Positions 1 to 24,020 of a DNA stretch of 64,000 nt are shown here, in pieces. A program made the position numbers and the translations under genes. The DNA comes from Gammaproteobacteria bacterium. GTDB lineage: Bacteria; Pseudomonadota; Gammaproteobacteria; UBA4575. Below the pieces are notes generated by a model. That model did not search any database. It saw nothing but the letters and a program-made list of their open reading frames with translations, and was not told the origin of the DNA. Each line of letters starts with the position of its first letter. Position 1 is the stretch's first letter. The DNA is taken from the NCBI GenBank assembly GCA_965222615.1, contig CBDCUI010000009.1, forward strand, positions 640,001 through 704,000. The letters run 5' to 3'.

Positions 1-655
1 GACTAAGGTTTTTGATTGATGTGTTGTCTATACGCAAAGCATCAATGGACACAAAATTATTGCGCCAAAGAATGTTACCCACCCAGCGATGATTATCATA
101 TATGATTTCTTGGCGTCCTAGTTTGAATGAGGTGTTACCACTACAAGGGTCTGGCGAATTTGGACAACCTCCTGTATGGCTGCGCCAGCCAAGGTAGAAT
201 TCGTTTATTTCTTCATATTCATTGTCAGGAATAATGGAATGGCCTGCTGCTATACGAGATCCGACTGGACCTGGTGGAATCCTGAAATCGTCATCGAGAT
301 TGAGAGCATTGTCATCACCTAAAGGTCTACCTGCTTCAAACTCACCACGAAGATAAAAGCCGTGGTAACGGGCCGTAGTCCACCCCCCCACAACACGAGC
401 AGTTAACTGTTCCGCTGTATCCGCACTGGCAATGGGTGATCCTGCCGATATGTCATCATCCACCTCTTCGTGTCGAAGCCTTAACCTCATATGCGGTTCG
501 CCATGAACGAGTGCCCTACCTAAAGAATCAGCGGCCGGTAAAAATTTTCCTCGATGTGTATTAGGAATATCAGTCAGGCCCACTGCTGAAACTCCCTGAG
601 CGATTAAAAAGATGGTGGTTGCCACCAGATAAGAAAGGGGTGTAAATTTGGCCAT
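1..655 (-). CDS. Alginate-export (AlgE-like) outer-membrane beta-barrel porin, 5' part (runs off the window)
   Basis: Absent from the ORF track. Manual translation from ATG 655 (RBS GGAGGAG at ~664-670) gives MAKFTPLSYLVATTIFLIAQGVSA (signal peptide)...LRLRHEEVDD...EINEFYLGW...FKLGRQEIIYDNHRWVGNILWRNNFVSIDALRI, open to the window edge. The GRQ..YDN.R.VG...WR motif is typical of the alginate-export family. Confidence 0.75.
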   Translation of the reverse strand, partial: MAKFTPLSYLVATTIFLIAQGVSAVGLTDIPNTHRGKFLPAADSLGRALVHGEPHMRLRLRHEEVDDDISAGSPIASADTAEQLTARVVGGWTTARYHGFYLRGEFEAGRPLGDDNALNLDDDFRIPPGPVGSRIAAGHSIIPDNEYEEINEFYLGWRSHTGGCPNSPDPCSGNTSFKLGRQEIIYDNHRWVGNILWRNNFVSIDALRIDNTSIKNLS

Positions 656-816: not shown

Positions 817-858
817 CCAAGACTTTGTTGTTATTGAACCCATAGGAGTTGACTATAG
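817..858 (-). promoter_or_regulatory. Putative CynR-like LysR operator/promoter element upstream of the porin
   Basis: Minus strand reads ATAG-TCAACTC-CTAT-GGGTTCAATAACA-ACAAAGTCTTGG, the same layout as three other sites. Confidence 0.75.
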
Positions 859-1055
859 TTCTAAGGAATGCACTGCAGATTTGATGACGGCAGCCAGGAT
901 TTAAATGTAATTACAGCTTTTTCATCATTAGGGCATCATACTCATAATTTATGTGCCTAAATATAAAATTTACAATCAAATGAAGTCGATACTTCTGAAT
1001 CAATAACTCAATTTTGCAACTAACTTAAAAATTTAATCTACGGAAACACGCCAAT

Positions 1056-1940
1056 ATGACGCACCGTTTTTATATAGTTGATGTGTTTACTGAACAACCT
1101 TACACCGGAAACCCGCTTGCGGTTGTTGTTATGGCAAAATCACTATCAGACGAAACCATGCAAAAAATTGCAGCGGAGATGAATTTTTCTGAAACCACTT
1201 TCGTGGCAACAACACCAGAAGATAATGGTGGATATCGTGTGCGAATATTTACACCTGCACGAGAAATTGATTTTGCTGGACACCCAATTCTCGGTACAGC
1301 ACAAGTCATTCGCCAATATCTTACTAATGAATCAAGTTCACAAATATTATTAAATCTCTCTAAGAGTCTGATACCAGTTAACTTTGAACATTTCAGCAAT
1401 GAGAGTGAAGTTGCCTGGTTTCTTGCACCACCAATGAAACTTGGCAAGGAATCTGCTCGCGAGCCTGTCGCAACTGCACTTGATTTAGCACCTGATGACA
1501 TTGATATCAGAACACCAATACAAGTAGTTTCTGCAGGTACTTCGGCGATGATTGTTCCACTAAATACTATGCAAGCACTACAGCATAGCCAACTAAATTT
1601 AGAAAAATTTGCCGTTTTAGCTGCTGAAGGTTTTCCACCTTTAATATATCTTTTTTGCCAACAAACACATCACCCCGAGAATGATTTATGTGCAAGATTT
1701 TTCTTTGAGGCGCATGGAGTACGTGAAGATCCAGCAACCGGAAATGGCGCAGCCTTTCTTGGAGCATATCTGTTGAAACATCGTTATTTCTCTAAATCCG
1801 ATTTATCACTACGAATTGAACAAGGTTATGAAATTCACCGGCCATCGTTGGTGAGGTTACGTGCACGAATACAAAATGGAAGTAGTGATATACAGGTTGG
1901 CGGTCATGTCATTCCAACAGTGCAAGGTCAACTTCTTTAA
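1056..1940 (+). CDS. PhzF-family (DAP-epimerase-like) isomerase
   Basis: VDVFT...GNPLAVV, MNFSETTF, RIFTP..EIDFAGHP and EDPATG motifs. Confidence 0.9.
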   Translation: MTHRFYIVDVFTEQPYTGNPLAVVVMAKSLSDETMQKIAAEMNFSETTFVATTPEDNGGYRVRIFTPAREIDFAGHPILGTAQVIRQYLTNESSSQILLNLSKSLIPVNFEHFSNESEVAWFLAPPMKLGKESAREPVATALDLAPDDIDIRTPIQVVSAGTSAMIVPLNTMQALQHSQLNLEKFAVLAAEGFPPLIYLFCQQTHHPENDLCARFFFEAHGVREDPATGNGAAFLGAYLLKHRYFSKSDLSLRIEQGYEIHRPSLVRLRARIQNGSSDIQVGGHVIPTVQGQLL

Positions 1941-2247
1941 CACCGTTTTGAATACCAAGCAATGTCAAACACGATAAGAACCTATAGTACTTATACACAA
2001 CTTTACCTTATGCTAAATTTCATATTAATTGGAGTTTTACATACGCTAATTAAAATATATTTATTAAAGAATAAGTGCATGTATGACTCTTGACTGGTAA
2101 AATTTAACCTAGTTCAGATAGCAATTAGTAACTTAGAGTACAACCTATTTTTTTAGGTACTTTGATAAAATCAAGAGTAACGAGCAAGATAATATCTTGT
2201 AATAACTTGTGCTCATTTTAGGTTGGGAGATGATAGGAGGTGTAAGA

Positions 2248-3225
2248 ATGTTTAAAAATAAAACGAACGGGTCCACCTTTTTTCTTGCATTAGGATTAAT
2301 TTTTCTTGTCCTCCCTTCAACTGGGCAAACTGGAGATAAGAATTTTGCGCCAACTATCGCATACCAAATGGTCGAGTTAGTACACGATGAAATTGAGCTA
2401 ATACGAAAACACAAACAAACGCCTGTTGATACACGTGCTAGTTTTCCTGTAGAACATGTTTTCCCCAGAGAAGTGTATTTCCAAGCCCTTACCTTACGAC
2501 AAAAGGCAGGGCGCCTTTGTCATGAAACCACTCAATTTTTATTAGCGCCTCCCGCTGCTGTACAGTTTTCGATTCCAAAAACAATCACTCCTGAAGACGT
2601 ATACGATATTGTCAATGACGCGTGGAGCCAAATTCGTTGTGCTAAGGCTGGCCTAAACATAAGTGAAGAAATCCAGCAATCGGCAAAACAAGGCACGGCT
2701 AAGACACTCACAGATGTGTTTAAGTCAATTGTTCAAGCGAATCGGCAGTTAAATTTAATATTAGAACAACCTATTGAACCAGGAGATGTATATGCCGTCG
2801 TTCAACATGCGAATGCGTATATAGTTGATATACTTGACAAATTAGCACCGGTGTGGAGTTTAACCGCACCCACACTTCCAGAGTATCAAGCAGGTAAAAG
2901 GCCCATCGATATCTACAAACAAATGCTAAAGAACTTCAGGATTATCGAACAAATATCAAAGGATTCTGGAATCGATATGCTGAGTTTAGGACCAGAAATA
3001 CAAACACCGATTACAACTACAGATGTTTTTGATTTGAGTTCTCTTATCCTTTCTGAACTAAGTTATTTTGCAACACAACTTGGCATAAATCGGATTTACA
3101 GATTGGAATCTCATCCTGACAAAGTTCCTTCTGATGTGTATCAGCAAGCACAAATTGTAGAGGCTCATCTAGAAATATTGGAGGGTTTTACCAAGAAGTA
3201 TCCGACTTGGACTAAATTAGAGTAA
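2248..3225 (+). CDS. Exported hypothetical protein with repeated P-x-D-V-(Y/F) helical motifs
   Basis: ATG 2248 with AGGAGG RBS, hydrophobic N-terminus, long ORF, no recognised family. Confidence 0.7.
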   Translation: MFKNKTNGSTFFLALGLIFLVLPSTGQTGDKNFAPTIAYQMVELVHDEIELIRKHKQTPVDTRASFPVEHVFPREVYFQALTLRQKAGRLCHETTQFLLAPPAAVQFSIPKTITPEDVYDIVNDAWSQIRCAKAGLNISEEIQQSAKQGTAKTLTDVFKSIVQANRQLNLILEQPIEPGDVYAVVQHANAYIVDILDKLAPVWSLTAPTLPEYQAGKRPIDIYKQMLKNFRIIEQISKDSGIDMLSLGPEIQTPITTTDVFDLSSLILSELSYFATQLGINRIYRLESHPDKVPSDVYQQAQIVEAHLEILEGFTKKYPTWTKLE

Positions 3226-3358
3226 TATAACTTTTAGTTAAACAACAATTTAATTTTACTTTTGTATAAGAAAGCTTAATGCCATAAATCTAATTAGCTG
3301 ATAGTAAGCATGCGTGACTGAATATCTATCCATAGGGATCTAAACTAAAATCAGGTAT

Positions 3359-3739
3359 ATGGACAGCTATACCGTCTTAAAAAATATTCATATCGCGACT
3401 GTATTGATTTCAATTGCAGGATTTTTTTTACGCGGAATTTGGATGATGCAATCTTCTTCCAAACTACTACATCGTTGGACAAAAATTGCACCACATATTA
3501 ACGATACAATTTTACTATTATCTGCAATTGCCTTAGTTTTTATTACAGCTCAATATCCAGGGCCAACAACGTGGCTAAATACAAAAATTATAGCTTTAGT
3601 AGTCTATATAATATTAGGAACAATTGCTCTTAAGCGCGGCAAGACGATGAGAACACGTGTTATTGCATGGTGTCTAGCATTGATGACGTTTATATATATT
3701 ATTATGGTAGCAATCAACAAAAACTCTTTGCCAATTTAA
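3359..3739 (+). CDS. SirB2/YchQ-family membrane protein
   Basis: LKNIH...SIAGFFLRG, KIAPHINDTILLLSA and WLNTKIIALVVYIILG match the SirB2 pattern. Confidence 0.85.
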   Translation: MDSYTVLKNIHIATVLISIAGFFLRGIWMMQSSSKLLHRWTKIAPHINDTILLLSAIALVFITAQYPGPTTWLNTKIIALVVYIILGTIALKRGKTMRTRVIAWCLALMTFIYIIMVAINKNSLPI

Positions 3740-3870
3740 ACGTCGACAAAAACAGCGTATAACAAACTCGATAGATAGCTTGTACTAAACCTCCAGAAAA
3801 GTTTTTCGTAAAACTTGCTCTTATTACAACCTTTACAGCATCCCGTTAAGAAACTGTAACTATAAAAGCT

Positions 3871-4053
3871 TTAGTGACAAGGAAAACCTTGCGAATGGCG
3901 AATATCATGTGCCGCATTATGCATAGCTGCTGTGTTTACAAAACCCGCACCATACAAAATGACACAGCCAAGTAAAAACGCACATGCAATCTGCAACGGT
4001 TTCGAAATCGACCTTGTATGCAAAATAGTTTCAGTTGTAGTCTGATTCTGCAT
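3871..4053 (-). CDS. cbtB: Cobalt transporter subunit CbtB (copy 1, last gene of the scn operon)
   Basis: One TM helix followed by the signature HNAAHDIRHSQGFPCH. Confidence 0.9.
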   Translation of the reverse strand: MQNQTTTETILHTRSISKPLQIACAFLLGCVILYGAGFVNTAAMHNAAHDIRHSQGFPCH

Positions 4054-4103
4054 ATTTACTCCTTACTTAAAAAAATTAAAAAATTCGATACACTTGTTGG
4101 ACA

Positions 4104-4946
4104 TCACGTATGGTGCCAACTAAAACGTTTAATGAGCATTGAACACGAACTATCTAAAATGTAACCCATTATTCCAATGGTTAGCACCATTGCGGTGAGG
4201 TGGTCATAGGATAAAGTTTCACGCGCATCTGCGATAGAGTAGCCTAGGCCTGAAGTCACACCCAAAAATTCTGCTGGGACAAGTACAATCCAAGCAACAC
4301 CAAGCGCAAGACGTACACCTGTCAGAATATCGAACATAATTGCAGGCAAAATAATTTGCGTGACCATATGCCAAGGCTTAGCCCCTAAATTACGCGCAAC
4401 TTTGAACCACGCAGGATCTACCTTGGCGAGCCCTGCAGCAGTTGCAAACACGATTGGCCATACTGCTGCAATTGCAATAAGAAATACGATTGCGCCATTC
4501 CAGGTAGTAAACACAATTACCGCAATCGGCTCCCAGGAAAGCGGGCTGATCATACGAATCAATTGAAATGGGGAGTTGCTTAGTTCTCGGAATATTTTGC
4601 TACGCCCTAGGAGAATACCGATCGGTACTCCAACGATGATAGCAATAAGTAATCCAATACCTAGTCGATAACCACTAGTTTTAACTGCTGCTTGGATCTT
4701 ACCTTCTGCCAATAATTCCGGAAATGCTTGGAACGTTGGAATAGGCCCGAAATCTTTAAAGTTTGTAGTATTGGGATTTATCTCAATTAAATAACCACCA
4801 ATCCACCAAAGCACAAATAAAATCGCAAGGCCCGCAGCCCAATTAAACAAGCTCCTACCCATCGACTTGGCAATAGCCGAGCTTTGAACAGCATTTATAG
4901 ATTCAATAGCACCTATTTCAGCTGTTTTATCAGTTCCATTACTCAA
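4104..4946 (-). CDS. NitT/TauT-type ABC transporter permease
   Basis: Multiple TM segments; ARNLGA (EAA-like loop) and LGVAWIVLVPAEFLGVTSGLGY motifs. Confidence 0.9.
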   Translation of the reverse strand: MSNGTDKTAEIGAIESINAVQSSAIAKSMGRSLFNWAAGLAILFVLWWIGGYLIEINPNTTNFKDFGPIPTFQAFPELLAEGKIQAAVKTSGYRLGIGLLIAIIVGVPIGILLGRSKIFRELSNSPFQLIRMISPLSWEPIAVIVFTTWNGAIVFLIAIAAVWPIVFATAAGLAKVDPAWFKVARNLGAKPWHMVTQIILPAIMFDILTGVRLALGVAWIVLVPAEFLGVTSGLGYSIADARETLSYDHLTAMVLTIGIMGYILDSSCSMLIKRFSWHHT

Positions 4947-6238
4947 AGCTCAAATACCTCGGTACGAATGTATGGATCACCTTCTTTGGGTACGCTAGCG
5001 TCGTTTCTCCATTTTGGATTCGCTTCAAGAGCGGTCTTGATAAAATCATAATTAACCAAGTCATCCGAAACATGTTCTGGAGTAAGCGTATCAAGAAACT
5101 TAGCGTCACCTGTAACCACAGTCTCTTTTAAGTCACTAACCACTAACTCGGTAGCAGATCTATATGGCCATGCTTGAAAATCGATGCGGTTTTGATCCCA
5201 TTCAGGATGTTTAATCGCAAGAGGATTTTGATAGTAAGCAGGATCGTAAAACATCATAGCCCTTTTCACTACTTCTTTCGGAACTGGCAAATACCCTTTA
5301 CCATCTTTAGAAAGTCGTTCAGCCATTGCCTCTCTATTTTCAGCAAGATGAATCTGAGCTTTTACTACAGCATTATGCACACCTTGTGCCCATGCAGCAC
5401 GATCAGGATCCATTGCATCTTCCTCATGCATAACAACGACACAACATGGATGTCCTTTCCATGCATCACCAGTGAAACGTAAAACTTTACCACCGGCTTT
5501 AAGCTCACCTAAAGCATTGAATGGTTCTGCCACGCAATAACCATCAATGGTTCCTGCTGCAAGCGCGGGTGGCATAGACGGTGGCGCCAATACTAAGAAA
5601 TTACACTCGTCGGGTTCGAGCTTGGCACTTTGCGGTTTAATCACCGGTTTAATCCCAGCCGCTTTCATAATTCTTTGGGATACGATGTTATGAATCGAAT
5701 ACCAATACGGTACTGCAAACTGTTTACCACCAAAATCTTTTGGCTCATTAATGCCGCTATTCTTACCGACAAGGACCGCAGAACCATTAGTATGATCCCA
5801 CGCCGTAATCTTAATTGGATATTTGTTGTTATAACGCATCCAAACTGGAATAGGGATTAACATGTGCGTAAGGTTGAAACGATGCGCGGCAAAGGCCTCT
5901 ACCAAAGGTGACCAACCACGAATAAGTGTAGGCTTAACCGACTCAAGACCTTCATCTTTAAAATAACCTTGGTCATGCGCGATCAACAAAGCTGCCGCAT
6001 CGGTAATGGGTATGTAACCGATTTTAATCACCGGATCCCATTTTTTCTTTGCTGCAAAAATAGGCATAGGCAATGAGCTCGCACCTCCCGCCAGTGCCGC
6101 GAGACCTCCTACTTGTAACAGTTCACGCCGGTTAATACCGGTACCTAAAACACCTTTAAAAAGTGGATCAAATTCTATAGCAAGTTTAGGATCATCATTT
6201 TGGATCCCATCACCATGTTTCTGGTAAATTTTCTTCAT
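4943..6238 (-). CDS. NrtA/CmpA/CynA-like ABC substrate-binding protein (Tat signal)
   Basis: NRRELL twin-arginine motif; KIGYIPITDAAALLIA, GYCVAEPFN and GHPCCV motifs. Confidence 0.88.
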   Translation of the reverse strand: MKKIYQKHGDGIQNDDPKLAIEFDPLFKGVLGTGINRRELLQVGGLAALAGGASSLPMPIFAAKKKWDPVIKIGYIPITDAAALLIAHDQGYFKDEGLESVKPTLIRGWSPLVEAFAAHRFNLTHMLIPIPVWMRYNNKYPIKITAWDHTNGSAVLVGKNSGINEPKDFGGKQFAVPYWYSIHNIVSQRIMKAAGIKPVIKPQSAKLEPDECNFLVLAPPSMPPALAAGTIDGYCVAEPFNALGELKAGGKVLRFTGDAWKGHPCCVVVMHEEDAMDPDRAAWAQGVHNAVVKAQIHLAENREAMAERLSKDGKGYLPVPKEVVKRAMMFYDPAYYQNPLAIKHPEWDQNRIDFQAWPYRSATELVVSDLKETVVTGDAKFLDTLTPEHVSDDLVNYDFIKTALEANPKWRNDASVPKEGDPYIRTEVFEL

Positions 6239-6338
6239 AGCGGAATTCCTCTCATCGTTACTCTAAATAGTAGTTTCTCTTATCTAGTTTCTATCAACGT
6301 TAAAAAATCAAATGTACACTTAACTATCATTTTTTTAA

Positions 6339-7169
6339 TCAATTGCCAGCAAACTCGGCATTTGATGCAGAAGTATCCCCATTATCCATCTGGGCATTTT
6401 CTTTTGGCGCCCCCGCTGCATCGTGAAAAATTTGCATAAGGTGAGTACGCATTTTCTGAACTGCAGGATCTTGTCGATCACGTGGATCTGGAAGATCCAC
6501 TCTGAGATCATGAACCATCTTGCCGGGCGAACCGGCCATCACTAGCGCACGATCTGCCATGATTACTGCTTCGTCTATATCATGTGTCACCATGACTAAG
6601 TTAAAACCTAGCTGTTTAGAAATTGCGCGAACATCTTTTTGCAAAGATGCACGAGTAAACGCATCTAATGCAGAAAACGGTTCATCCAAAAGAAGCATTT
6701 CAGGCTCCATTACTAAAGAACGTGCTAAAGCTACTCGTTGTTGTTGCCCACCTGAGAGATCTTGAGTATTTTTTTTCGTATACTCTTCCATGTTAACCAA
6801 ACTAATTGCTTCGTTAACACGATCACGAATTTTATTTTTTGACCAACCAGCAAAACGTAATCCGGTACCGACATTTTGTTCAACCGTCATCCAGGGAAAT
6901 AGATGTGGAGCCTGAAACATCATCACCCATTTTGATGAAGGGTCTTTAACATCTTTATTATTTAACTGCACGGTACCACTGTAATTTCCCAACAAACCAG
7001 CGACGATGTGAAGTAAAGTGGACTTACCGCACCCGGAGCGACCGATAATGACAAGTGACTCACCGGGTTGTGCCTCCATATCCACTTTGTCAAAAGTAAG
7101 TGGACACTTTGAGTTATATCGGTGGGTAAGATCCTTTACATTAATATGTACACCATTGCGTTCTGCCAT
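6339..7169 (-). CDS. ABC transporter ATP-binding subunit (NitT/TauT type)
   Basis: Walker A GRSGCGKS, LSGGQQQR and LLLDEPFSALD. Likely start is ATG 7169 (MAERNG). Confidence 0.92.
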   Translation of the reverse strand: MAERNGVHINVKDLTHRYNSKCPLTFDKVDMEAQPGESLVIIGRSGCGKSTLLHIVAGLLGNYSGTVQLNNKDVKDPSSKWVMMFQAPHLFPWMTVEQNVGTGLRFAGWSKNKIRDRVNEAISLVNMEEYTKKNTQDLSGGQQQRVALARSLVMEPEMLLLDEPFSALDAFTRASLQKDVRAISKQLGFNLVMVTHDIDEAVIMADRALVMAGSPGKMVHDLRVDLPDPRDRQDPAVQKMRTHLMQIFHDAAGAPKENAQMDNGDTSASNAEFAGN

Positions 7170-7334
7170 GTGTAATCCCTTCTGTAATATCGTAGTTTCG
7201 GACTGCCAACTACCTGGTTCAACGCTTAACCGGGAATTGAGCGCTCCCTTCAAACTGTGTTGATACATCAAGTAAGCTGCTCCATTCGACCTGTGTGGAT
7301 ATACTTGTTAATAAGACCGCTCTTTTTCATGAAA

Positions 7335-7697
7335 TTATTCAGCAATAATCTTGTCAGACCATTCAACGTCTTCAACAAAAGTATCAGGATTACCTGGTTG
7401 TGCACCTGCTTTTGCCATATCATCTTCTGTAACACCTCGTGCTCTTGAACATGCACCGCAACATTCAATTCGTACACCATTCTCAATAGCTTCATTCCAC
7501 TGCTCAGCCACCGAGGGCCACCCAAGTGGAACCATATTCTCACGAACCACTGGCCGTGCAAGACATACTGCTTCGCCTAGCAGAAATATTCGAATCTCAT
7601 GGCCCTTACCAGCCAATGCGTTAGCATGTCCAAACACCATCGCTGCTCGTGTTGGATCATCACTCCCCCATGATGACTTCATAAAAATCTTTGCCAT
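7335..7697 (-). CDS. DsrE/DsrF-like sulfur relay family protein
   Basis: 120 aa; IFLLGEAV and CCGACSRARG motifs typical of the DsrE family. Confidence 0.8.
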   Translation of the reverse strand: MAKIFMKSSWGSDDPTRAAMVFGHANALAGKGHEIRIFLLGEAVCLARPVVRENMVPLGWPSVAEQWNEAIENGVRIECCGACSRARGVTEDDMAKAGAQPGNPDTFVEDVEWSDKIIAE

Positions 7698-7791
7698 GAC
7701 TCCTTCCTAATTTTCACTACTTAGTTATTATTTTTTTATTAACCAAAACTTTTTTCTGGTCTGTCGATACAAATTCGAAGCAGGTTTTGTA

Positions 7792-8193
7792 TCACACCAT
7801 ATTGAGACGTTTATCAACCTCCTTTATACGACGCTTGAGTTCATCTTCATCAATAAGGCCTCTACGAATCATGGAATGGACCAGTGCTAATAGTTGCCGT
7901 TCTGGAAATGGGACATCTGCATAGTGATCTTCAGATAATTCATCTTCTTCCCAACGACGTTCTAGTGCCGGTAATGCACAAGCAACTTCAGATAAAACAT
8001 CACAGGTCGCTTCTAGCGTAATCTTCCAAGGTGGGTCAGGATTATCCACGCCATATTGTTCACATAAATCGCCCCAGACTCTTCCTTCCTTTTTAATTTC
8101 TTCAAGTAACGAAATTGGAGATTTATCCAAATTCCGATTTGTCATTTCTTCATCTAGTTTGATTTTCTCAGGATTGATTTCGACCATCATCAT
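7792..8193 (-). CDS. Thiocyanate hydrolase activator/accessory protein (P15K-like, nitrile-hydratase accessory type)
   Basis: ~15 kDa protein immediately downstream of scnC with NHase-beta-N-like features (PPW...LEA, ERR..EDEL, FPERQLLAL..SMIRRGLIDEDEL). Confidence 0.72.
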   Translation of the reverse strand: MMMVEINPEKIKLDEEMTNRNLDKSPISLLEEIKKEGRVWGDLCEQYGVDNPDPPWKITLEATCDVLSEVACALPALERRWEEDELSEDHYADVPFPERQLLALVHSMIRRGLIDEDELKRRIKEVDKRLNMV

Positions 8194-8195
8194 TC

Positions 8196-8891
8196 CTAGT
8201 GTTTGTAAGGCTTAATGGCTTTTCGAATCGGTCGTGGGTCGTTTGTAGTCTTACCTGGTTTCGGTAACGCTACGCCAATTAAACAATCCCGTGTAACAAT
8301 TTCGGTTAATTGATCTTCAGTCCAACCCTCTGTTCCCTCAGGACGTACTGGCATCACAATAAACCGAGACTTCTGATTCGAGTCTTCAACTCTCACTTCA
8401 ACGTCTGCTGGAAGCTGCAAACCAAACTCTGCAAGTACTTGGCGCGGCCAGCGTACTAAGCGTCGTCGATAGTTCGGTGTTCGATACCACTCTGGAGATT
8501 GACCAAGAATCGGTCGTGGGTAACAGGAACACAGTGTACACACCACCACGTGATGTAGCTTCGGTGTATCCTCAAGAACACGTAAATTGCAATAATCACT
8601 AGGTGTACCAAACTTAGTAGGCATTTGATTAACCCAGTCGATACCTACTTCCAGACTGGCTTTAACACCGTCTTCCACAGCCAACTTTTTGAATTCAGGA
8701 TCCAACCATGCTTTGGCAACTAGACGCGCAGCAGGTGTTGGCCCCAGTGTGTGCATATATTCTGTCCACGCCTGATGATCTTCCGCAGTGAACAGACCTT
8801 TCTCAATAGCAAGTTCGCGAACCGCAATTTCAAGTATCTCAAACTCACTGACTTCATCCACCATTGGTGCGGGTTTATGCTTCTCTGCCAT
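8196..8891 (-). CDS. scnC: Thiocyanate hydrolase gamma subunit (Co-binding)
   Basis: Cobalt-type metal motif VVVCTLCSCYP. KPAPMV..V..FEILE.AVRELAIEKGLF and TPSDYCNLRVL closely resemble Thiobacillus thioparus ScnC as I recall it. Confidence 0.93.
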   Translation of the reverse strand: MAEKHKPAPMVDEVSEFEILEIAVRELAIEKGLFTAEDHQAWTEYMHTLGPTPAARLVAKAWLDPEFKKLAVEDGVKASLEVGIDWVNQMPTKFGTPSDYCNLRVLEDTPKLHHVVVCTLCSCYPRPILGQSPEWYRTPNYRRRLVRWPRQVLAEFGLQLPADVEVRVEDSNQKSRFIVMPVRPEGTEGWTEDQLTEIVTRDCLIGVALPKPGKTTNDPRPIRKAIKPYKH

Positions 8892-8949
8892 TTGTTCTTC
8901 CTCTTCTAATAATTAAGTTCTGATTGTTCTGCTGTATCGCTGTTGTTTT

Positions 8950-9318
8950 TTAAAGAGGCTCTAGCCATCGCTCGGGTAACTCAGTCTCTAAAGTATCGTT
9001 TGCAAATGTATCTGGATAATCCGGCCAAAGATCCTTTTGCTTGAATACCAAACTATAAAACCATTCAGGATTTTCCGTGTTATCCCAAGCCTCATCTTCT
9101 GCAGGAGGGCTTTCATAGACCAATGCAACAACAACTGCAGGAGCGCCACGTGTATAAGCTTGAGTGCGGGTATAAAAAATATCTGGCAGATCTCTGATAC
9201 GTACTTTATCGCCTACTTTAAATTTAGGTTTGCTAGCTTCACCTTTAAAGCATTGTGGATCACCTATTCCAGTAGCTTTTTTGACATGATGCTCTCTATC
9301 GTAATGTGGCTTACTCAT
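8950..9318 (-). CDS. scnA: Thiocyanate hydrolase alpha subunit
   Basis: ATGIGDPQCFKG, DLPDIFYTRT and TFANDTLETE match ScnA. Start ATG 9318 overlaps the scnB stop (ATGAGTAA). Confidence 0.92.
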   Translation of the reverse strand: MSKPHYDREHHVKKATGIGDPQCFKGEASKPKFKVGDKVRIRDLPDIFYTRTQAYTRGAPAVVVALVYESPPAEDEAWDNTENPEWFYSLVFKQKDLWPDYPDTFANDTLETELPERWLEPL

Positions 9319-9742
9319 AACGTTTTTTAACCTCGTCAATCTTGTCCTGAAGTTCAGTAAGTGTGACGTATTGCTTATCAACTAATATCAATGCAGCGGT
9401 AAGCAACCACCGACCATAATAAGGAAGACCCAAATATTGCGTCTGACCTACATCTACGTTTTGGCGACGCCGTCTTTCCTCTGCATTCCAAACACCGCGC
9501 CAAGCTAAAACTTCACAAGTTACAAAGGTATTGTGTTCCCACACTTCCTCTTCCTTTTCTTCCCAAGGAATGGGCACATCTCGTTCACCGCCTACGTCAT
9601 GTGCTGCTCGTGTATAGGCACGATATTGTTCGTTAGTAACCTCATCGGGAGATGGGGCATGTGTTTCTTGATGCAACGCTGGCTGTAACAGACCGACAAG
9701 ATTAAGATGGCTTAGAACTCGATCTCTAGTAGAAGATGACAT
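9311..9742 (-). CDS. scnB: Thiocyanate hydrolase beta subunit
   Basis: MSSS..., QPALHQETHAP, HDVGGE, LAWRGVW.AEERRR.QN.DVGQT.YLG.PYYGRWLL match ScnB. Confidence 0.93.
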   Translation of the reverse strand: MSSSTRDRVLSHLNLVGLLQPALHQETHAPSPDEVTNEQYRAYTRAAHDVGGERDVPIPWEEKEEEVWEHNTFVTCEVLAWRGVWNAEERRRRQNVDVGQTQYLGLPYYGRWLLTAALILVDKQYVTLTELQDKIDEVKKRYE

Positions 9743-9901
9743 GGCCTTGTACTCCTTCTTCCGATTATTTTTTTAAATAATTTTTGGCAAGTTGTCTTGC
9801 AGCTCAAGCGATACGCACTGTTTTAGAATTTGGTTATATACTTATTTTATAAGGTATTCACTTGACCTGATGACAAGTCTAATGGAGATGTGTTATTAAT
9901 C

Positions 9902-9941
9902 CCAAGACTTTGTATTTATAAATCCTATAGGAGTTACCTAT
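9902..9941 (-). promoter_or_regulatory. Putative CynR operator for the scn operon, overlapping the cynR RBS and start codon
   Basis: Minus strand reads ATAG-GTAACTC-CTAT-AGGATTTATAAAT-ACAAAGTCTTGG, followed by a TAGACT -10-like hexamer at ~9876-9881. Confidence 0.8.
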
Positions 9942-10980
9942 GGATAGACGACATATCTTCCCGCGATCTCTTCAATATTTGATCGCAATTGCTGAACATG
10001 GCAGCTATACCCGTGCCGCCGAGGTATTACACGTCTCTCAGCCAACTTTATCGCAACAAATTAAGCAATTAGAAGGATCATTGGGATCGCCGCTATTAGA
10101 CCGTTCCGGTAGAACAGTACGCTTAACTGATGCCGGAAAAATTTATCTACATCATGTGCGTCGTGCTTGGGGCGAACTCGATGCAGGAACTCGCGCAATT
10201 AACGATGTGCAAGATTTAACCCGTGGCTTTTTGCGTTTGGGATGGACTCCAATCACCGACTACATGACTTGTTCCTTATTGGAAAACTTTAACAGTCGCT
10301 ATCCCGGCATCACATTAAGCACTTTGGAAATGCCTCAAGATGATATTGAAGTGGCCGTATCTGAAGCCCATATCGATGTCGGTATTGTTTTCAGTAAACC
10401 ATTTTCGCCTGAAGCAAGACCAACCGAAATTGTTACTGACATGTTGTTTAAAGAACCACTATGCGTTGCCGTAGGTAATGCACATCCTCTTGCTGGAAAG
10501 CAGGAAACCATGAGTGTAGAAGAACTTGGCGAAGAATCTTTGGTTTTACTCAATACTCACTTCGCGATGCGGCGCCACCTTGATCTGTATTGCCGCAATC
10601 AAGACATTTCACCGCGCATTGCAATCGAAACAAATTCTCTTAGCGTAATTATAGAACTGATTCAGCTCGGTGCACTTGCGACTATACTACCTATCAGTAT
10701 CATTCATTCACAGTATGGTCTTTATGCAATTAATGTTTCACCCGAAATACCACCTAAAGCAATCACCTTAATTTACCGTAAAGGTGCTTACAGAAGTCCA
10801 GCCTGTCTAGCTTTTTCAGAATTGGCTGCAGATTGGTCTGCGCGCAGACTTCAGGAAATTCCGATTCGAAGACGACTACCTTATCCACTACCTGAAAAAT
10901 ATTATCAAAACAAAAATCAACAAAATCCTAAAGAAGAGCCGTTGGCAAAGAAGGTGCAAAACATTATGAAAATAGATTGA
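9940..10980 (+). CDS. cynR: LysR-family regulator, CynR-like
   Basis: HTH sequence AEHGSYTRAAEVLHVSQPTLSQQIKQLE..LG.PLLDRSGRTVRLTDAG closely resembles CynR. Divergent from scnB and close to cynS. Confidence 0.85.
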   Translation: MDRRHIFPRSLQYLIAIAEHGSYTRAAEVLHVSQPTLSQQIKQLEGSLGSPLLDRSGRTVRLTDAGKIYLHHVRRAWGELDAGTRAINDVQDLTRGFLRLGWTPITDYMTCSLLENFNSRYPGITLSTLEMPQDDIEVAVSEAHIDVGIVFSKPFSPEARPTEIVTDMLFKEPLCVAVGNAHPLAGKQETMSVEELGEESLVLLNTHFAMRRHLDLYCRNQDISPRIAIETNSLSVIIELIQLGALATILPISIIHSQYGLYAINVSPEIPPKAITLIYRKGAYRSPACLAFSELAADWSARRLQEIPIRRRLPYPLPEKYYQNKNQQNPKEEPLAKKVQNIMKID

Positions 10981-11014
10981 GATAATTGTTAGATACGCTA
11001 AACATTACACATGA

Positions 11015-12328
11015 TTATTTATTTGTAACCGCTACGTGAACTTCACCCTCTAAGACAGGCGGTAATGGCCCGCCCGTTGCCCAATCTAATAATTCAACAG
11101 TATGCACCACCGGTATTTTCGTAGCAGAGCCAATCTGTAACATACACCCTATATTACCTGCAGCAATGACATGTGGCGCACCAAGCTGCAGTGACTCAAC
11201 TTTACGCGCTCTTAACTGCTTTGAAATTTCGGGCTGCAAAAGGTTATAGGTACCAGCAGAACCACAACATGTGTGTGGATCTTTTGGTTCGAGTACAGTA
11301 AAACCCGCTGCTTTTAATAGCTTTTTTGGTGTAAACCTAATTCGCTGCCCAAATTGTAGTGAGCATGTGGCATGATAAGCCACGCGTAAATTGGGCATTG
11401 CCTTATAGTCCAAGTCGATTTTCGACAAAACTTCGGTAATGTCTTGAGCTAACGCAGAAATCGTCGCAGCATCTTGTGATAAATCACTATTTCGAAATAT
11501 CTCGACATAGTTTTTCACCATGACTCCACAGCCGCTAGCGTTGATCACCACTGCATCCAATCCTGCATCATTTACTTCTTTCATCCAGGCGCGAATGTTT
11601 TTCGCCGCCATCGCAAGACTTGGTTGAGACTTGCCCATATGGTAAGTCAACGCACCACAACAACTAGCGCCATCAGCAACGACCACTTCGCATCCATGAC
11701 GACGTAAAATGCGAATGGTTGCATTATTGATATTCGTATTCAGTGCCTTTTGCGCACAACCAGTCATCAAGACTACGCGACGCTTACATTCACCTTTTGC
11801 TGGAACAACTTGTGGTTCATCATTTGGGTTTGATGGCGATAACGTATTGGGCACCAACTCCAGCATTGCGCGCATTCTCTTGGGCAACGGACTGCTCGGC
11901 AATGACTTAGCTAATTGCCCCAAACGCATCATTATTCGCAAGCGTTTCGAGTAGGGCAAAATTTGTGCCAGGACCCAACGTTGGATGCGGTCAAATAGTG
12001 GGCGGTCATAGTTGTCCTCGATATATTCTCGGGCATGATCCACTAAATGCATATAGTTCACACTCGACGGACAGGTAGACATACACACTAAACAAGACAA
12101 GCAACGATCAATATGGTTGACGGTCTTTTTACTTGGCTCACCCCCATTCTCTAACATTTCCTTAATAAGATAAATGCGCCCACGTGGGCTATCAAATTCG
12201 TCTCCCAATAACTGATAAGTCGGACAGTTATTAATACAGTAACCACATTGCAAGCAGGCACTTAGCTCCACGTTAGACTGGGCCATAATAGGATTAGCCA
12301 GTTGTTCGGAAGTAAAATTGGTTTGCAT
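11015..12328 (-). CDS. glcF: Glycolate oxidase iron-sulfur subunit-like protein
   Basis: Two CxxCxxCxxxCP 4Fe-4S motifs, DSPRGRIYL, and two CCG domains (CCGA, CCGSAGTYN). Confidence 0.85.
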   Translation of the reverse strand: MQTNFTSEQLANPIMAQSNVELSACLQCGYCINNCPTYQLLGDEFDSPRGRIYLIKEMLENGGEPSKKTVNHIDRCLSCLVCMSTCPSSVNYMHLVDHAREYIEDNYDRPLFDRIQRWVLAQILPYSKRLRIMMRLGQLAKSLPSSPLPKRMRAMLELVPNTLSPSNPNDEPQVVPAKGECKRRVVLMTGCAQKALNTNINNATIRILRRHGCEVVVADGASCCGALTYHMGKSQPSLAMAAKNIRAWMKEVNDAGLDAVVINASGCGVMVKNYVEIFRNSDLSQDAATISALAQDITEVLSKIDLDYKAMPNLRVAYHATCSLQFGQRIRFTPKKLLKAAGFTVLEPKDPHTCCGSAGTYNLLQPEISKQLRARKVESLQLGAPHVIAAGNIGCMLQIGSATKIPVVHTVELLDWATGGPLPPVLEGEVHVAVTNK

Positions 12329-12526
12329 TGACCTATTCCATTTACTTATCAGAAAAACTTAACTTAACTATGAATTGTATTTTATAGCGCCACTTTAAAA
12401 AACTCATTTGACAAAATTTACAATCTATTTTTTCAACATTATTTAAAACTTTAAGAACAGATTCAAACCTATTAGCTATCGCTTAGGAAATAGAAACATT
12501 GGAGGAAACAACTAACTTTACACCCT

Positions 12527-12566
12527 ATTGTTAATCTCTATAGAGCTAATAAGAACAAAGTCTTTG
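12527..12566 (+). promoter_or_regulatory. Putative CynR operator upstream of cynS
   Basis: ATTG-TTAATCT-CTAT-AGAGCTAATAAGA-ACAAAGTCTTTG. Confidence 0.75.
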
Positions 12567-12712
12567 ATTTATACAGCCGTATCCCTAAAACTAGAATTAC
12601 CTGGCAAATTAGATTACTCAAATTTATTTAAATTTCCTCAAAAATAAATATTGGGATTGAGTTGCTATGTGATACCTGGCTATTGAAGATTACTTTTCAG
12701 CGAGGAGTCGAT

Positions 12713-13153
12713 ATGAATAAAGAAGAAATGACCGACTGCATTATTGCAGCAAAAAAAGCTAAAGGTCTCACCTGGGAAACCATTGCTCACAAAGTTGGTA
12801 AAGGCACAACCTGGGTAACCTCTGCTTGTTTAGGAATGAACAGCACCACTGAGGAAGTCGCAAAAAGCTTATGCGAAATTCTTGGGCTCGATGAAGATGT
12901 TTGTACAACATTACAAGAATATCCACACAAGGCATGGGACAAAACGATACCGCAAGATCCAGTAGTCTATCGATTTTATGAAATCGTTGGTGTCTATGGC
13001 GATACTATTAAAGAAATTATAGCTGAGAAGTTTGGGGATGGAATTATGAGTGCTATCGATTTTTCTATGGATATTGACAAAGAAGAAAACCCTAAAGGCG
13101 ATCGAGTGGTAATCACCATGAATGGTAAATTCTTAAAATATACTTCGTGGTAA
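12713..13153 (+). CDS. cynS: Cyanase (cyanate hydratase)
   Basis: PQDPVVYRFYEIVGVYG, EKFGDGIMSAIDF and GKFL motifs. ATG 12713 has a GAGGAG RBS. Confidence 0.95.
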   Translation: MNKEEMTDCIIAAKKAKGLTWETIAHKVGKGTTWVTSACLGMNSTTEEVAKSLCEILGLDEDVCTTLQEYPHKAWDKTIPQDPVVYRFYEIVGVYGDTIKEIIAEKFGDGIMSAIDFSMDIDKEENPKGDRVVITMNGKFLKYTSW

Positions 13154-13467
13154 TTGAACAAACGCTGATTTCTTTTTTTGAGCAAGTAGCTCAAAAAGAT
13201 ACAAGTCAATTAAACAAATTAAAACAAAATAAGTATTTCAGTGTAGAAAAGGAGCGCTGGTGTTTTACTTTGCCTGATTTATATGCCTTTCTGCGATTAC
13301 AAAATGATGACTTAAACGACATTGATTACCAACAATTTCGAAAATTAATTTTTAACAGTCCTATTAATCAAACCATTAAATCATATGGAGCTGAAATTAC
13401 GATTACAGACAATCAAACCAATGTCGATAAATCAAGCTATGCACTAGTCTGGAAAAGTATGAAATAA
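13147..13467 (+). CDS. Hypothetical protein overlapping the cynS stop
   Basis: 106-aa ORF whose GTG start overlaps the cynS 3' end. Confidence 0.6.
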   Translation: MVIEQTLISFFEQVAQKDTSQLNKLKQNKYFSVEKERWCFTLPDLYAFLRLQNDDLNDIDYQQFRKLIFNSPINQTIKSYGAEITITDNQTNVDKSSYALVWKSMK

Positions 13468-13538
13468 GTTTTTATTTAATCTTAAGAATAAGTGAATTAA
13501 GCTCAAATTAATATTTTTCTCAGAACAGTTGACTATCA

Positions 13539-13808
13539 TTAATCCTCAGTACGACGTCGTTTGCTAGCATCTGCAAGATGCACAATTCCGTAAGAAATAC
13601 CAAAACCAATAAACAAAGATATTATAATCAAGACAATATTTGCTAAATTGATATCCCCGCCAAGTTTCGTATTCACATCAAAAATATTGGCTAAAATATT
13701 CATAGTCAGCAAAGCAATAAAAATACCTCCAAAAAAGAAAATGCGGAACGGCCTAGTGCCTGTTGTTATCACATCGACGACTATATCCCGCATTTTTCGT
13801 TTCATCAC
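13539..13808 (-). CDS. Small two-TM hypothetical membrane protein
   Basis: Two hydrophobic segments and a basic C-terminus. Confidence 0.55.
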   Translation of the reverse strand: MMKRKMRDIVVDVITTGTRPFRIFFFGGIFIALLTMNILANIFDVNTKLGGDINLANIVLIIISLFIGFGISYGIVHLADASKRRRTED

Positions 13809-13923
13809 GTGTTTCGCTTTAACTCAAAAAACGTCTCCCGAAATATTATATTTATATTTACATGGTACAGTAATCGCTTATAAACCACATTTAGTAATCT
13901 AACAAGCGGCACTATTTTTACAT

Positions 13924-14706
13924 ATGTCCAACAAATTACAGAATACTAAAACTGATGTTCTACAGTTTGTTCATATCACAGATACTCATCTGCTGAATCA
14001 AGCAAATGAAACTTTTCATGGTTTAAATACAAAAAAAAATTTAGAGGCGGTTTTAAACCATTGTCAAATACGCTATCCAAACATAGATTTTTTGCTGTTT
14101 ACGGGTGATATTTCTCAAACAGGCGATGAGGCAAGTTATACAATCTTCAACTCAATAATACGCCAATATAAAATCCCCATTTACTGTATTCCAGGCAATC
14201 ACGACATCCCAAAATTTTTACAGCATATTATTCCAAGTTGTCCAAAGGAGACAATTAGAACGATTCAATTCGGTAAGTTTTCACTAATTTTATTAAACAG
14301 CTGGGTAGAAAACCAACACCACGGAATGATCTCTCAACATTGTCTGTTGGAATTAAAAAGTTTCCTGCAAAAAAATAGTGGACAATTTAATATTATAGCG
14401 ATTCATCACCCGCCCATAATAATTAACAGTAAGTGGCTTGATGAAATTGGCTTACAGAATAAAGCGGATTTTTTACAAGTCATTCATAAATATGCGCCAA
14501 ATTCATTACTGATATTTGGACATATTCATCAAGAAATCGACCAGCAGCAAGACTCACTGCGTTTCCTTTCTACACCATCTACCTGTCATCAATACAAAGC
14601 GAATTCTGAGTGCATGCAGTGTATTTTCACACCACCGCCTACATATCGATTTATAAAGCTAAACCCAACACATCATATTGAAACAAATCTTCATTATATT
14701 GAATAA
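13924..14706 (+). CDS. cpdA: CpdA/Icc-like metallophosphoesterase
   Basis: ITDTHL, TGDISQ, PGNHD, HHPP, GHIHQ and TPSTC motifs. Confidence 0.8.
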   Translation: MSNKLQNTKTDVLQFVHITDTHLLNQANETFHGLNTKKNLEAVLNHCQIRYPNIDFLLFTGDISQTGDEASYTIFNSIIRQYKIPIYCIPGNHDIPKFLQHIIPSCPKETIRTIQFGKFSLILLNSWVENQHHGMISQHCLLELKSFLQKNSGQFNIIAIHHPPIIINSKWLDEIGLQNKADFLQVIHKYAPNSLLIFGHIHQEIDQQQDSLRFLSTPSTCHQYKANSECMQCIFTPPPTYRFIKLNPTHHIETNLHYIE

Positions 14707-14836
14707 GATAACCGCATGATTTAAACCAGAATCCTAACCCGTCTTCTACTGCCCACCATTAAAAACTTCTTGTCATAGCAGTCATTGACAAGACCTAGCA
14801 TATTTATGATCACAAGTAATAACGTAATTTCGATCT

Positions 14837-14902
14837 ATAGCCAATACCTATAGGTTTAATAAATACAAAGTATTCGGATTAATAAAACTTCTCCTTTAGA
14901 CT
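14837..14902 (+). promoter_or_regulatory. Putative CynR operator/promoter upstream of cbtBA
   Basis: ATAG-CCAATAC-CTAT-AGGTTTAATAAAT-ACAAAGTATTCG-GATTAATAAAACTTCTCCTT-TAGACT, strongly similar to the scnB promoter. Confidence 0.78.
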
Positions 14903-15064
14903 TAACCATTAGCTCAATTGAACAATCGATTAAATAAGTATATAAGCGAATTCTTAAATTTAACAGACAGCTCTTGATCTCAAAAAGTAAACAGATCTGC
15001 ATTTAGATTCGCGCCAAGATTTGTTTTAGATAATTTTAAGAATCAGAAGGAAGGAGAATTAGCG

Positions 15065-15262
15065 ATGAGTACAGTCAAAGAGGCAACCAGCTTGCTAACT
15101 CAAATCCAAACTGGTGAGATACCTTGGTCAACTATATATGCCGTTAGTGCAGCCATTCTCACTGGTGTATTCATTATTGCAGCCGTAGGTTTTGCTGGAC
15201 CAGAAGTTTTGCATAATGCTGCTCATGACATTCGTCATGGATTAGCTTTTCCTTGTCACTAA
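15065..15262 (+). CDS. cbtB: Cobalt transporter subunit CbtB (copy 2)
   Basis: TM helix plus LHNAAHDIRHGLAFPCH. Confidence 0.9.
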   Translation: MSTVKEATSLLTQIQTGEIPWSTIYAVSAAILTGVFIIAAVGFAGPEVLHNAAHDIRHGLAFPCH

Positions 15263-15283
15263 ACTTTTACAACCTCAATAACA

Positions 15284-15991
15284 ATGAAAACCTTTAATAG
15301 GATTTTTTTGTCGGCGCTATTTTCTGGTGTACTAGCCGGTCTAGTACTCGCAGGAATCCAACACTTTACCGTCATCCCAATGATTCTAGAAGCCGAAACC
15401 TATGAGACAACCGATACAAATGAAAATACAACTGCAATGAATCAAGAGGAAGAAGCCTGGGCACCTGAAGATGGTGCTGAAAGAACTTTTTATACGGCTA
15501 CGAATAGTATGATTGTTGGTATCGGGTTTGGTCTACTATTAGCAGCATGCTATGCATTTCGAGGCAGTGTTACTTGGGGCAAGGGCCTGTTATGGGGGCT
15601 TGCTGGTTTTGCCACATTTCACCTCGCGCCTTCTTTTGGTTTACCTCCAGAACTTCCTGGAGATGCTGCCGCTGGTTTGGAACAAAGACAAATTTGGTGG
15701 TTATTAACCGTAATTGTTACAGCAATGGGGCTTTGGATCATTGCTTTTCAACCAAAACATTATCTTAAATTATTCGGTGTAGCATTAATCATATTGCCGC
15801 ATATATTTGGTGCACCACAACCTGAAGTGCATGGAGGCTTAGCTCCGGAAGAGCTTAGAAATACTTTTATGTATACCTCTCTTGCTACAAACGCAATTTT
15901 CTGGATTGTGTTAGGAATGCTTAGCGCCTATTTTTACAATAGATTTGATAAACCTATAGAAAATACAGCAGTGAACGCTGCATTGAGTTAA
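15284..15991 (+). CDS. cbtA: Cobalt transporter subunit CbtA
   Basis: PMILEAETYE, WAPEDGAER, GLPPELPG, RQIWW and LPHIFGAP motifs; follows cbtB. Confidence 0.9.
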   Translation: MKTFNRIFLSALFSGVLAGLVLAGIQHFTVIPMILEAETYETTDTNENTTAMNQEEEAWAPEDGAERTFYTATNSMIVGIGFGLLLAACYAFRGSVTWGKGLLWGLAGFATFHLAPSFGLPPELPGDAAAGLEQRQIWWLLTVIVTAMGLWIIAFQPKHYLKLFGVALIILPHIFGAPQPEVHGGLAPEELRNTFMYTSLATNAIFWIVLGMLSAYFYNRFDKPIENTAVNAALS

Positions 15992-18671: not shown

Positions 18672-18679
18672 TATGCAAA

Positions 18680-23930: not shown

Positions 23931-24020
23931 GCGGAGAGAGAGGGATTCGAACCCTCGGTGCCCCGTTGAGGACACACTCACTTTCCAGGCGAGCCCGTTC
24001 GACCACTCCGGCATCTCTCC
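23929..24020 (-). tRNA. tRNA-Ser(GGA)
   Basis: GGAGAGATGCCGGAGTGGTCGAACGGGCTCGCCTGGAAAGTGAG...GAGGGTTCGAATCCCTCTCTCTCCGCCA, with a long variable arm, anticodon GGA and encoded CCA. Confidence 0.96.

Follow-up and report, generated by a model that had tools for sequence, protein, structure and literature searches.

Results

Thiocyanate hydrolase locus

The stretch of DNA studied here (the window) comprises 64,000 nucleotides from a Gammaproteobacteria bacterium of the UBA4575 lineage (assembly GCA_965222615.1, contig CBDCUI010000009.1, positions 640,001 to 704,000 of the forward strand). It carries the genes of a thiocyanate hydrolase (scnB, scnA and scnC), a divergent LysR-type regulator of the CynR family and four copies of a 40-bp operator, which precede a porin gene, scnB, the cyanase gene cynS and a cobalt-uptake pair, cbtB-cbtA. 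An earlier note on this DNA had proposed that these four units form one CynR regulon. The operator copies and the genes at which they point are the following (PWM, position weight matrix; ABC, ATP-binding cassette).

817..856, minus strand: operator copy 1, with IR1, IR2 and the start of the -35 element, before the porin gene; 54.9 bits with a PWM from relatives
9902..9941, minus strand: operator copy 2, before scnB; its first half-site overlaps the regulator ATG (9940-9942); putative -10 at 9876-9881
12527..12566, plus strand: operator copy 3, before cynS; the weakest copy, with a poor -10
14837..14876, plus strand: operator copy 4, before cbtB; putative -10 at 14897-14902
1..655, minus strand: 5' part of the porin gene (528-aa outer-membrane barrel, AlgE-like), which extends left of the window (G000:C9:639072-640655)
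3871..4053, minus strand: cbtB copy closing the scn operon (TIGR02459, 68.2 bits, cut-off 64.4)
4104..7271, minus strand: NitT/TauT-type ABC importer (ATPase, binding protein, permease), a candidate thiocyanate importer; gaps of -4 to 168 bp within this run
7335..7697, minus strand: DsrE/DsrF-like protein (PF02635)
7792..8193, minus strand: 133-aa gene after scnC, no family match, present in 77 of 80 related loci
8196..8891, minus strand: scnC, thiocyanate hydrolase gamma (TIGR03887, 392.7 bits, cut-off 291; PDB 2dd4_C)
8950..9318, minus strand: scnA, thiocyanate hydrolase alpha (PDB 2dd4_A, E 7.8e-60)
9311..9742, minus strand: scnB, thiocyanate hydrolase beta (PDB 2dd4_B, E 2.6e-67)
9940..10980, plus strand: CynR-family LysR regulator, 346 aa, a member of the hydrolase-linked clade, divergent from scnB (NF008416, 356.6 bits, cut-off 277)
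12716-13153, plus strand: cynS (cyanase), by family match
15065..15991, plus strand: cbtB-cbtA, proposed cobalt transporter (CbtA: TIGR02458, 252 bits, cut-off 182.9)

All three hydrolase subunits are present with a split beta chain, the gamma subunit exceeds its family cut-off and carries the cobalt-binding cysteine motif from residue 118 onward, and each subunit finds its best match in a chain of PDB 2dd4, the Thiobacillus thioparus enzyme. On the minus strand, scnBAC, the 133-aa gene (which, from its position, we take to be the P15K activator), the DsrE-like gene, the ABC importer and cbtB follow one another with gaps of -8 to 168 bp. The next-best family of the regulator reaches 156.7 bits, far below that family's cut-off, and its best PDB match is E. 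coli CynR (2hxr/3hfu).

The letters at the four sites, their coordinates and their strands are exactly those quoted in the earlier note, and so is their spacing: the four 40-mers align without gaps in one register, with 28-32 of 40 bases identical per pair. The 3' end of the operator lies 161 bp (porin), 159 bp (scnB), 149 bp (cynS) and 188 bp (cbtB) before the start codon, in agreement with the ~150-190 bp put forward there. That note had also suggested a whole-genome PWM scan, in which the four copies prove to be the only strong matches in the 3.1-Mb genome. In a leave-one-out scan of both strands (3,097,016 bp), each held-out copy ranks directly after the three training copies, with 37.3, 37.6, 26.6 and 35.2 bits against 19.2, 22.4, 18.6 and 19.6 bits for the best other genomic site; a strict consensus matches four times, and a PWM built from relatives finds no fifth operator in the genome (best other place 15.4 bits). 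The feature is therefore real, beyond chance and not a dispersed repeat.

Promoter architecture

A dyad followed by an activation site at -35 is the textbook design of LysR promoters, and the element found here exceeds 40 bp, reaching into a -35 and a -10. Set in the register of E. coli, the window copies place the IR1 dyad (ATAG-N7-CTAT, a 15-bp T-N11-A dyad present in all four) at positions 1-15, IR2 at 23-37, a poor -35 at 38-43 and the -10 at 61-66, the last reading TAGACT in the scnB and cbt promoters, where E. coli has TAGTCT. The -10 of the porin promoter is shifted by one base and that of the cynS promoter is weak. The E. coli cynR-cynT region, for which the accessible text of PMC5002191 gives three 15-bp dyads centred at -66, -44 and -34, holds a single match in 4.5 kb to a matrix built from 146 sites of relatives (28.7 bits, same register down to the -10). 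Given this base-for-base correspondence of IR1, IR2, -35 and -10, we read the window sites as CynR-type operators. In the group of CynR, OxyR and IlvY promoters to which such operators belong (PMC5002191), IR1 lies ~66 bp before the start site, a weaker IR2 follows 22 bp downstream, and a well-conserved IR3 covers the -35. A generic sigma-70 scan was uninformative (17 matches against 29 expected).

The overlap of the regulator ATG with IR1 recurs in 55 of 78 related regulators, while 13 of the 78 show no scorable site near the start; such an overlap would fit autorepression of a transcript with little or no leader. Both the LysR architecture and the assignment of the operator to the neighbouring CynR homologue, as first proposed, are thus borne out by the genome scan, by phylogenetic footprinting (next section) and by the comparison with E. 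coli cynR-cynT.

A second, 9-10-bp AT-rich block is common to the porin, scnB and cbt leaders, ~100 bp downstream of the site start, and may be a second promoter or a duplication remnant.

Conservation across related loci

Our sample of related loci consists of the best 80 of 562 scnC relatives. In these 1.37 Mb, a matrix made from the four window sites finds 136 sites of at least 20 bits, compared with 0, 0, 0, 0 and 2 in five local shuffles. A second-round matrix, seeded from the first and hence partly circular, places 176 sites in 74 of the 80 loci, with zero in three shuffles and zero inside a matched gene. Of the 78 loci whose upstream DNA is long enough, 73 have a site before scnB; 72 of the 80 encode the regulator.

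The first genes behind the 176 sites are scnB (83, a count that takes in tandem sites and second scnB-like copies), a GlcF-type gene (19), porin (11), cbtB (6), cynS (5), phzF (2), the 106-aa gene described below (1) and 49 others. These others comprise CbiM (22), HupE/UreJ (4), NicO (1), DUF4198 (1) and singletons, several without a convincing open reading frame (ORF); Pfam identification was run on 2 of the 22 CbiM and 1 of the 4 HupE/UreJ cases. A cobalt-importer-type gene lies behind its own site or co-directionally downstream of scnC in 56 of the 80 loci (37 of 47 near-full ones), and this recruitment of unrelated cobalt transporters behind one operator is the strongest sign that cobalt supply is selected within the regulon. 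Second, divergent scnB/scnA-like pairs (~47-60% identity) occur near the main operon in loci L043, L050, L053, L056, L057 and L076, several with their own site.

Over 40 whole genomes, the exact pattern matches 100 times (1-4 per genome), against 3 for a reversed-pattern control. In six relatives with genomes of 1.7-2.0 Mb, the fetched 20 kb contain 1-4 sites along with both hydrolase and regulator. Beyond the scn cluster, one site in Thiobacillus thioparus lies far from scn before a TonB receptor-PepSY pair that is 30-32% identical to the pair in the window, and one in Ca. Thiodiazotropha endolucinida lies before a TonB-BtuC-like uptake run.

Other sites stand before genes of less obvious role. 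In Ca. T. endolucinida (L223:1087-2264, G990:C27), two Pfam-less genes of 213 and 176 aa follow a 41-bit site and precede the TonB receptor and BtuC-like ABC importer; the 213-aa protein resembles an ORF behind a site at L015:20208. Three Thiobacillus loci (L202, L217, L224) have a conserved 35-38-bit site before a small XRE-like gene, far from scn, and a fourth genome, G1006, has a similar site on record. Off-cluster pattern matches in G410, G407 and G999 scored 13.3, 9.9 and below zero and were treated as chance.

Regulator and effector

We aligned 146 distinct CynR-like proteins, of which 79 are scn-linked, 41 cynT-linked, 4 cynS/X-linked and 22 other; duplicate loci, proteins below 270 aa and one gene with internal stops were excluded, and tails were cut at 330 aa. 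In a tree made by a quick method with midpoint root, the 79 scn-linked proteins and that of locus L121 lie on one side of a branch with an SH-like approximate likelihood-ratio (SH-aLRT) value of 100, and the L121 regulator proved scn-linked once a wider span was fetched. The recognition-helix residues are identical in the 79 scn-linked and the 41 cynT-linked regulators, so that the helix is of CynR type. Conservation is unevenly spread along the window regulator: its N-terminal part matches E. coli CynR at 42 of 60 residues and its effector domain at 73 of 199.

Within that domain the two groups differ at three positions. E. coli T100 is deleted in 79 of 79 scn-linked proteins and is Thr in 41 of 41 cynT-linked ones; F101 is Ile or Val in all 79 and Phe in all 41; T200 is Leu (75), Met (2), Phe (1) or Val (1) in the former and Thr in all 41 of the latter. 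T98, P99, F147 and R201 are retained in both. In an alignment at 26% to CysB, T100 and F101 correspond to CysB T102 and Q103, and T200 adjoins T202; these three CysB residues contact sulfate in the inter-domain cleft according to the accessible part of PMC11329422, and azide occupies the same cleft in CynR in the available text of bioRxiv 2020.10.19.344861. The window regulator has T100 deleted, Ile105 for F101 and Met210 for T200, and thus lacks the cleft residues of the cyanate-linked proteins; given these changes, we do not claim that it is a functional orthologue of the cyanate sensor. A regulator-first search at 57% identity or more returned 18 metagenome loci, all with the T100 deletion; scn genes appear in 12 of them, other genes of the cluster in 4 and none of these in 2, and cynT appears in no locus.

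Loci L149-L165 hold many CynR-like paralogues of one betaproteobacterial family that lie beside neither cynT nor scn and have Ser, Val or Ala at T200.

Taken together, the sequence data make it highly probable that the neighbouring LysR protein of the CynR family binds the four sites and that these define a conserved CynR-type regulon of thiocyanate use. Each site would be the upstream half of an activator-dependent sigma-70 promoter. By analogy with CynR and other LysR proteins, a tetramer on IR1 would repress the regulator's own gene, whose ATG overlaps that dyad, and once effector is bound the regulator would engage IR2 and recruit RNA polymerase. The porin, the scnBAC-activator-dsrE-ABC-cbtB operon, cyanase and cbtBA would then be switched on, such that thiocyanate entry, hydrolysis, cobalt loading and cyanate removal would rise together.

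Provided that the regulon exists, thiocyanate is somewhat favoured as its effector, given that two threonines of the anion cleft are missing throughout the hydrolase-linked clade; on chemical grounds, a roomier and less polar cleft would suit the larger, softer sulfur end of thiocyanate. The most serious competitor, possible though doubtful, keeps the same regulon and has it respond to cyanate still, or to both anions, with the cleft changes reflecting no more than the history of the clade. Cyanate formed from thiocyanate breakdown, or co-occurring with it, would then induce the set. Such a reading would accommodate a regulator that passes the CynR equivalog cut-off, the four cleft residues kept in both groups, the presence of cynS in 46 of the 80 loci and a cleft tolerant enough to take azide in E. 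coli CynR as well (bioRxiv 2020.07.08.193060, in its accessible part); moreover, by common ancestry the changes in 79 of 79 proteins amount to one event, which also counts against inferring a new effector from them. On the other hand, the changed positions line the cleft and are invariant in all 41 cynT-linked proteins, the constant partner is scnB and not cynS or cynT, and the 18 loci picked by regulator alone include 12 with scn genes and none with cynT.

Origin of the copies and other explanations

The upstream regions of scnB and cbt (window 9821-9948 and 14830-14958) form an inverted copy with 78% identity over 129 bp (E 4e-23), and those of porin and scnB share 70% over 125 bp. This similarity indicates that the operators arose at least partly by promoter duplication and not by independent origins, and we propose that the scnB promoter was duplicated to give the extra copies, with selection then acting on the operator. 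The same similarity, along with the poor -10 of the cynS copy, could also be taken to mean that scnB alone has a working site, the other three being inert remnants of promoter duplication or being read without regulation. We regard this as improbable, since identity between copies peaks in IR1 (10-13 of 15 bases) and positions 23-40 (14-16 of 18), as expected under selection on the operator, and drops outside, being near background upstream (3-10 of 20). In addition, porin and cbtB sites are retained in divergent relatives with other gene orders, and the arrangement of a site and cynS opposite glcF recurs in loci L228, L033 and L040.

It is less probable still that another factor binds the motif, be it one of the three other LysR proteins of the genome or a regulator that responds to cobalt or nitrogen. 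In its favour, LysR proteins in general recognise T-N11-A dyads, one genome strand has 371 occurrences of the bare IR1 pattern, and the span fetched for 8 of the 80 loci contains no such regulator; yet the three other LysR proteins are just 25-29% identical to the cluster regulator, the full motif equals the E. coli CynR operator, and the site overlaps the regulator start codon in most relatives, as described above. Finally, a dispersed repeat, mobile-element end or RNA element, an idea that flanking IS3 and IS30 copies might invite, has next to no chance, as the motif has no further genomic copies, far outnumbers its control over 40 genomes, gives no Rfam match except a tRNA and lies upstream of the -10, where it would not be transcribed with its gene.

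The insertion sequences themselves lie just past the porin gene (IS3, L001:12766-13922) and just past pepSY (IS30, window 20212-21198), with a tRNA gene ~2.7 kb to the right of IS30 (window 23932-24020, minus strand). A composite transposon was rejected: the two flanking elements differ, each has three identical genome copies, and G+C is unremarkable.

To return to the CynR-type regulon, several observations weigh against it or narrow it. Close kin are included among the 80 loci; five of the 78 with enough upstream DNA have no scorable site before scnB; and the PWM from relatives was seeded with the window's four sites, which makes rescoring the window partly circular. Promoters linked to cynT conserve the right half of IR3, which is weak in 189 scn-linked sites and in the four window copies. 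An scn-trained matrix scores at least 15 bits in 20 of 41 cynT-linked promoters and below zero in 12, which suggests an operator common to much, not all, of the CynR family. The cleft assignment comes from the sequence alignment to CysB, with T200 falling one residue off CysB T202. Lastly, of the 42 loci with a long cynS match, only 4 give cynS a site of its own; in 20 it comes later in a unit that starts behind a site, in 8 it directly follows the regulator, and in 10 it is found elsewhere. Cyanase is thus a loose member of the regulon across relatives, and co-induction of the four units is a prediction.

Cyanase and the hydrolase product

Thiocyanate hydrolase is described as yielding carbonyl sulfide (COS) and ammonia, with a COS hydrolase acting next, and cyanase is treated as an unreliable marker (PMC5328954 and PMC6504805, in their accessible parts); Ca. 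Thiodiazotropha transcribe both hydrolase and cyanase, according to the available text of PMC11171427. In this genome we found no COS hydrolase of the beta-carbonic-anhydrase type, whether by PF00484, by a clade-D query or by a hidden Markov model (HMM) of six proteins over six frames (best E 0.016), and hence no complete pathway of thiocyanate hydrolase plus COS hydrolase. Neither cynT nor cynX turned up in our searches of this genome. In relatives, six clade-D loci are without an operator in their vicinity (best 3.7 bits). This leaves two options, with COS escaping or being hydrolysed by other means in one and cyanate being a real product or by-product in the other.

In one further, bolder reading, the clade is a dedicated thiocyanate sensor, remodelled from a cyanate sensor in two cleft loops with the operator kept; and, given the predicted co-induction of cyanase and the lack of a recognisable COS hydrolase in the genome, a real share of the product may leave as cyanate plus sulfide or be handled by the GlcF-type, DsrE-like and 106-aa proteins. 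As a whole we find this rather unlikely; its thiocyanate-sensor half, taken alone, has close to an even chance.

No beta-, alpha- or clade-D carbonic anhydrase was found in this genome, which bears RuBisCO and cyanase, and the same-genus genome G401 has a beta-type enzyme and no scnC. A PF00484 tally that suggested most scn-bearing kin to be without beta-carbonic anhydrase was discarded, having missed the clade-D gene in the genome behind locus L004. A search for CsoSCA was without match in any control too and shows nothing on presence.

Neighbouring genes and genome setting

The remaining genes of the cluster are the following.

11015..12328, minus strand: orphan GlcF-type Fe-S/CCG protein; no window site points at it
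13147-13467, plus strand: 106-aa gene overlapping the cynS stop; no Pfam or known family; in 23 of 80 related loci
16338..20119, plus strand: TonB-dependent receptor and PepSY-TM gene; 346-bp gap from the cbt unit, no own site

No operator aimed at glcF, phzF or the TonB gene was found within the window, and the upstream region of the TonB gene in three same-family genomes holds nothing above 6.8 bits; the TonB receptor and PepSY-TM gene may, with some uncertainty, belong to the cbt unit by read-through. Neither Pfam nor NCBIfam gives a match for the porin, whose closest Atlas clusters are barrels of the alginate-export (AlgE-like) type (score 0.98); the Atlas neighbours of the 106-aa protein are all unnamed clusters. 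The CbtB beside cbtA scores 60.7 bits, just below the NCBIfam cut-off of 64.4 and above the Pfam cut-off.

Among the side genes, the orphan GlcF-type gene occurs in 34 of the 80 scn loci, in two distant subtypes ~65% and ~35% identical to that of the window (e.g., loci L005 and L065), and is first behind 19 sites, as tallied above; its product perhaps serves sulfur or electron handling. A homologue of S-adenosylmethionine-dependent methyltransferases (L015:4790-5656 and others), absent from the window cluster, is found in 43 of 80, in one case directly behind a site; by analogy, we presume that it may methylate thiocyanate or thiols. A PhzF-family gene (window 1056-1940; 28 of 80 loci) and a CpdA-like metallophosphoesterase gene (window 13924-14706; 8 of 80) have no window site aimed at them.

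The genome is 99.8% complete in 9 contigs. It encodes the RuBisCO large subunit and DsrA, with no match for SoxB, CoxL or alpha-carbonic anhydrase. From the RuBisCO large subunit and DsrA, without a SoxB match, we infer that the source organism is probably a sulfur-oxidising autotroph. scnC is present in 10 of 18 same-family genomes and absent from the one same-genus genome.

Discussion

Both the scn gene cluster and the LysR promoter design are already known, the conserved scn operon being credited to Kantor et al. 2015 (as cited in PMC5458468, in its accessible part). The closest relative of the arrangement described here is the E. coli cynR-cynTSX system, with which it shares a regulator above the NF008416 cut-off, the same recognition helix, the same operator register, a divergent layout and, by prediction, autoregulation and cyanase among the targets. 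Unlike E. coli, however, this genome has four dispersed sites in place of one, its predicted targets are thiocyanate hydrolase, cobalt import and a porin, and its regulator is divergent from scnB and not from cynTSX; the cleft is without T100 and T200, the start codon overlaps IR1, and the right half of IR3 is weak.

The gene content agrees with the scnABC clusters of Thiobacillus thioparus DSM 505 and Thioalkalivibrio thiocyanodenitrificans (Berben et al. 2017, PMC5328954), in whose accessible description a small gene and then a NitT/TauT ABC importer likewise follow the scn genes, and genes for cyanase, a DsrE-like protein and cobalt uptake lie close by. That text notes that cobalt uptake systems differ between species and, in the part available, names no regulator or operator for the scn cluster. 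T. thioparus has the same regulator clade and three in-cluster sites, but CbiM where this genome has CbtBA. A parallel exists in thiocyanate dehydrogenase (TcDH) clusters, where a regulator and metal-supply genes also travel with a thiocyanate-degrading metalloenzyme, although those clusters have an unrelated copper enzyme, another regulator family (sigma-54 regulators) and another promoter type (PMC5328954 and PMC6504805, as far as accessible). Our literature search, judged mostly at abstract level and with subscription papers, RegPrecise and preprint supplements outside its scope, returned no account of a CynR/LysR operator controlling thiocyanate hydrolase.

The cobalt branch offers a further comparison. 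CbtBA is known under cobalamin riboswitch control. The proposed transporter families are the same here, but Rfam found no cobalamin riboswitch before cbtBA at gathering score in window 1-25000, and expression is predicted to be tied to the regulator of a non-corrin cobalt enzyme. By placing CbtBA, stand-alone CbiM, HupE/UreJ and NicO with one cobalt enzyme, the operator thus lends independent support to CbtBA as a cobalt supplier outside B12 synthesis.

Overall, our analysis provides a candidate for the master regulator of the cobalt thiocyanate hydrolase pathway, together with its putative operator. The pathway occurs in thiobacilli from mine-water bioreactors, in symbionts of clams and in many uncultured sulfur oxidisers of marine origin. 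Regulon membership can be read from genomes with an operator of this specificity, and it nominates the porin, the TonB receptor and the GlcF-type protein as parts of the pathway. A CynR variant that responded to thiocyanate would serve as a simple biosensor and as a clear example of an effector switch. An old puzzle, namely the presence of cyanase beside an enzyme whose products are said to be COS and ammonia, also becomes testable and, if the reading holds, the regulon would expose the in vivo pathway of the hydrolase product.

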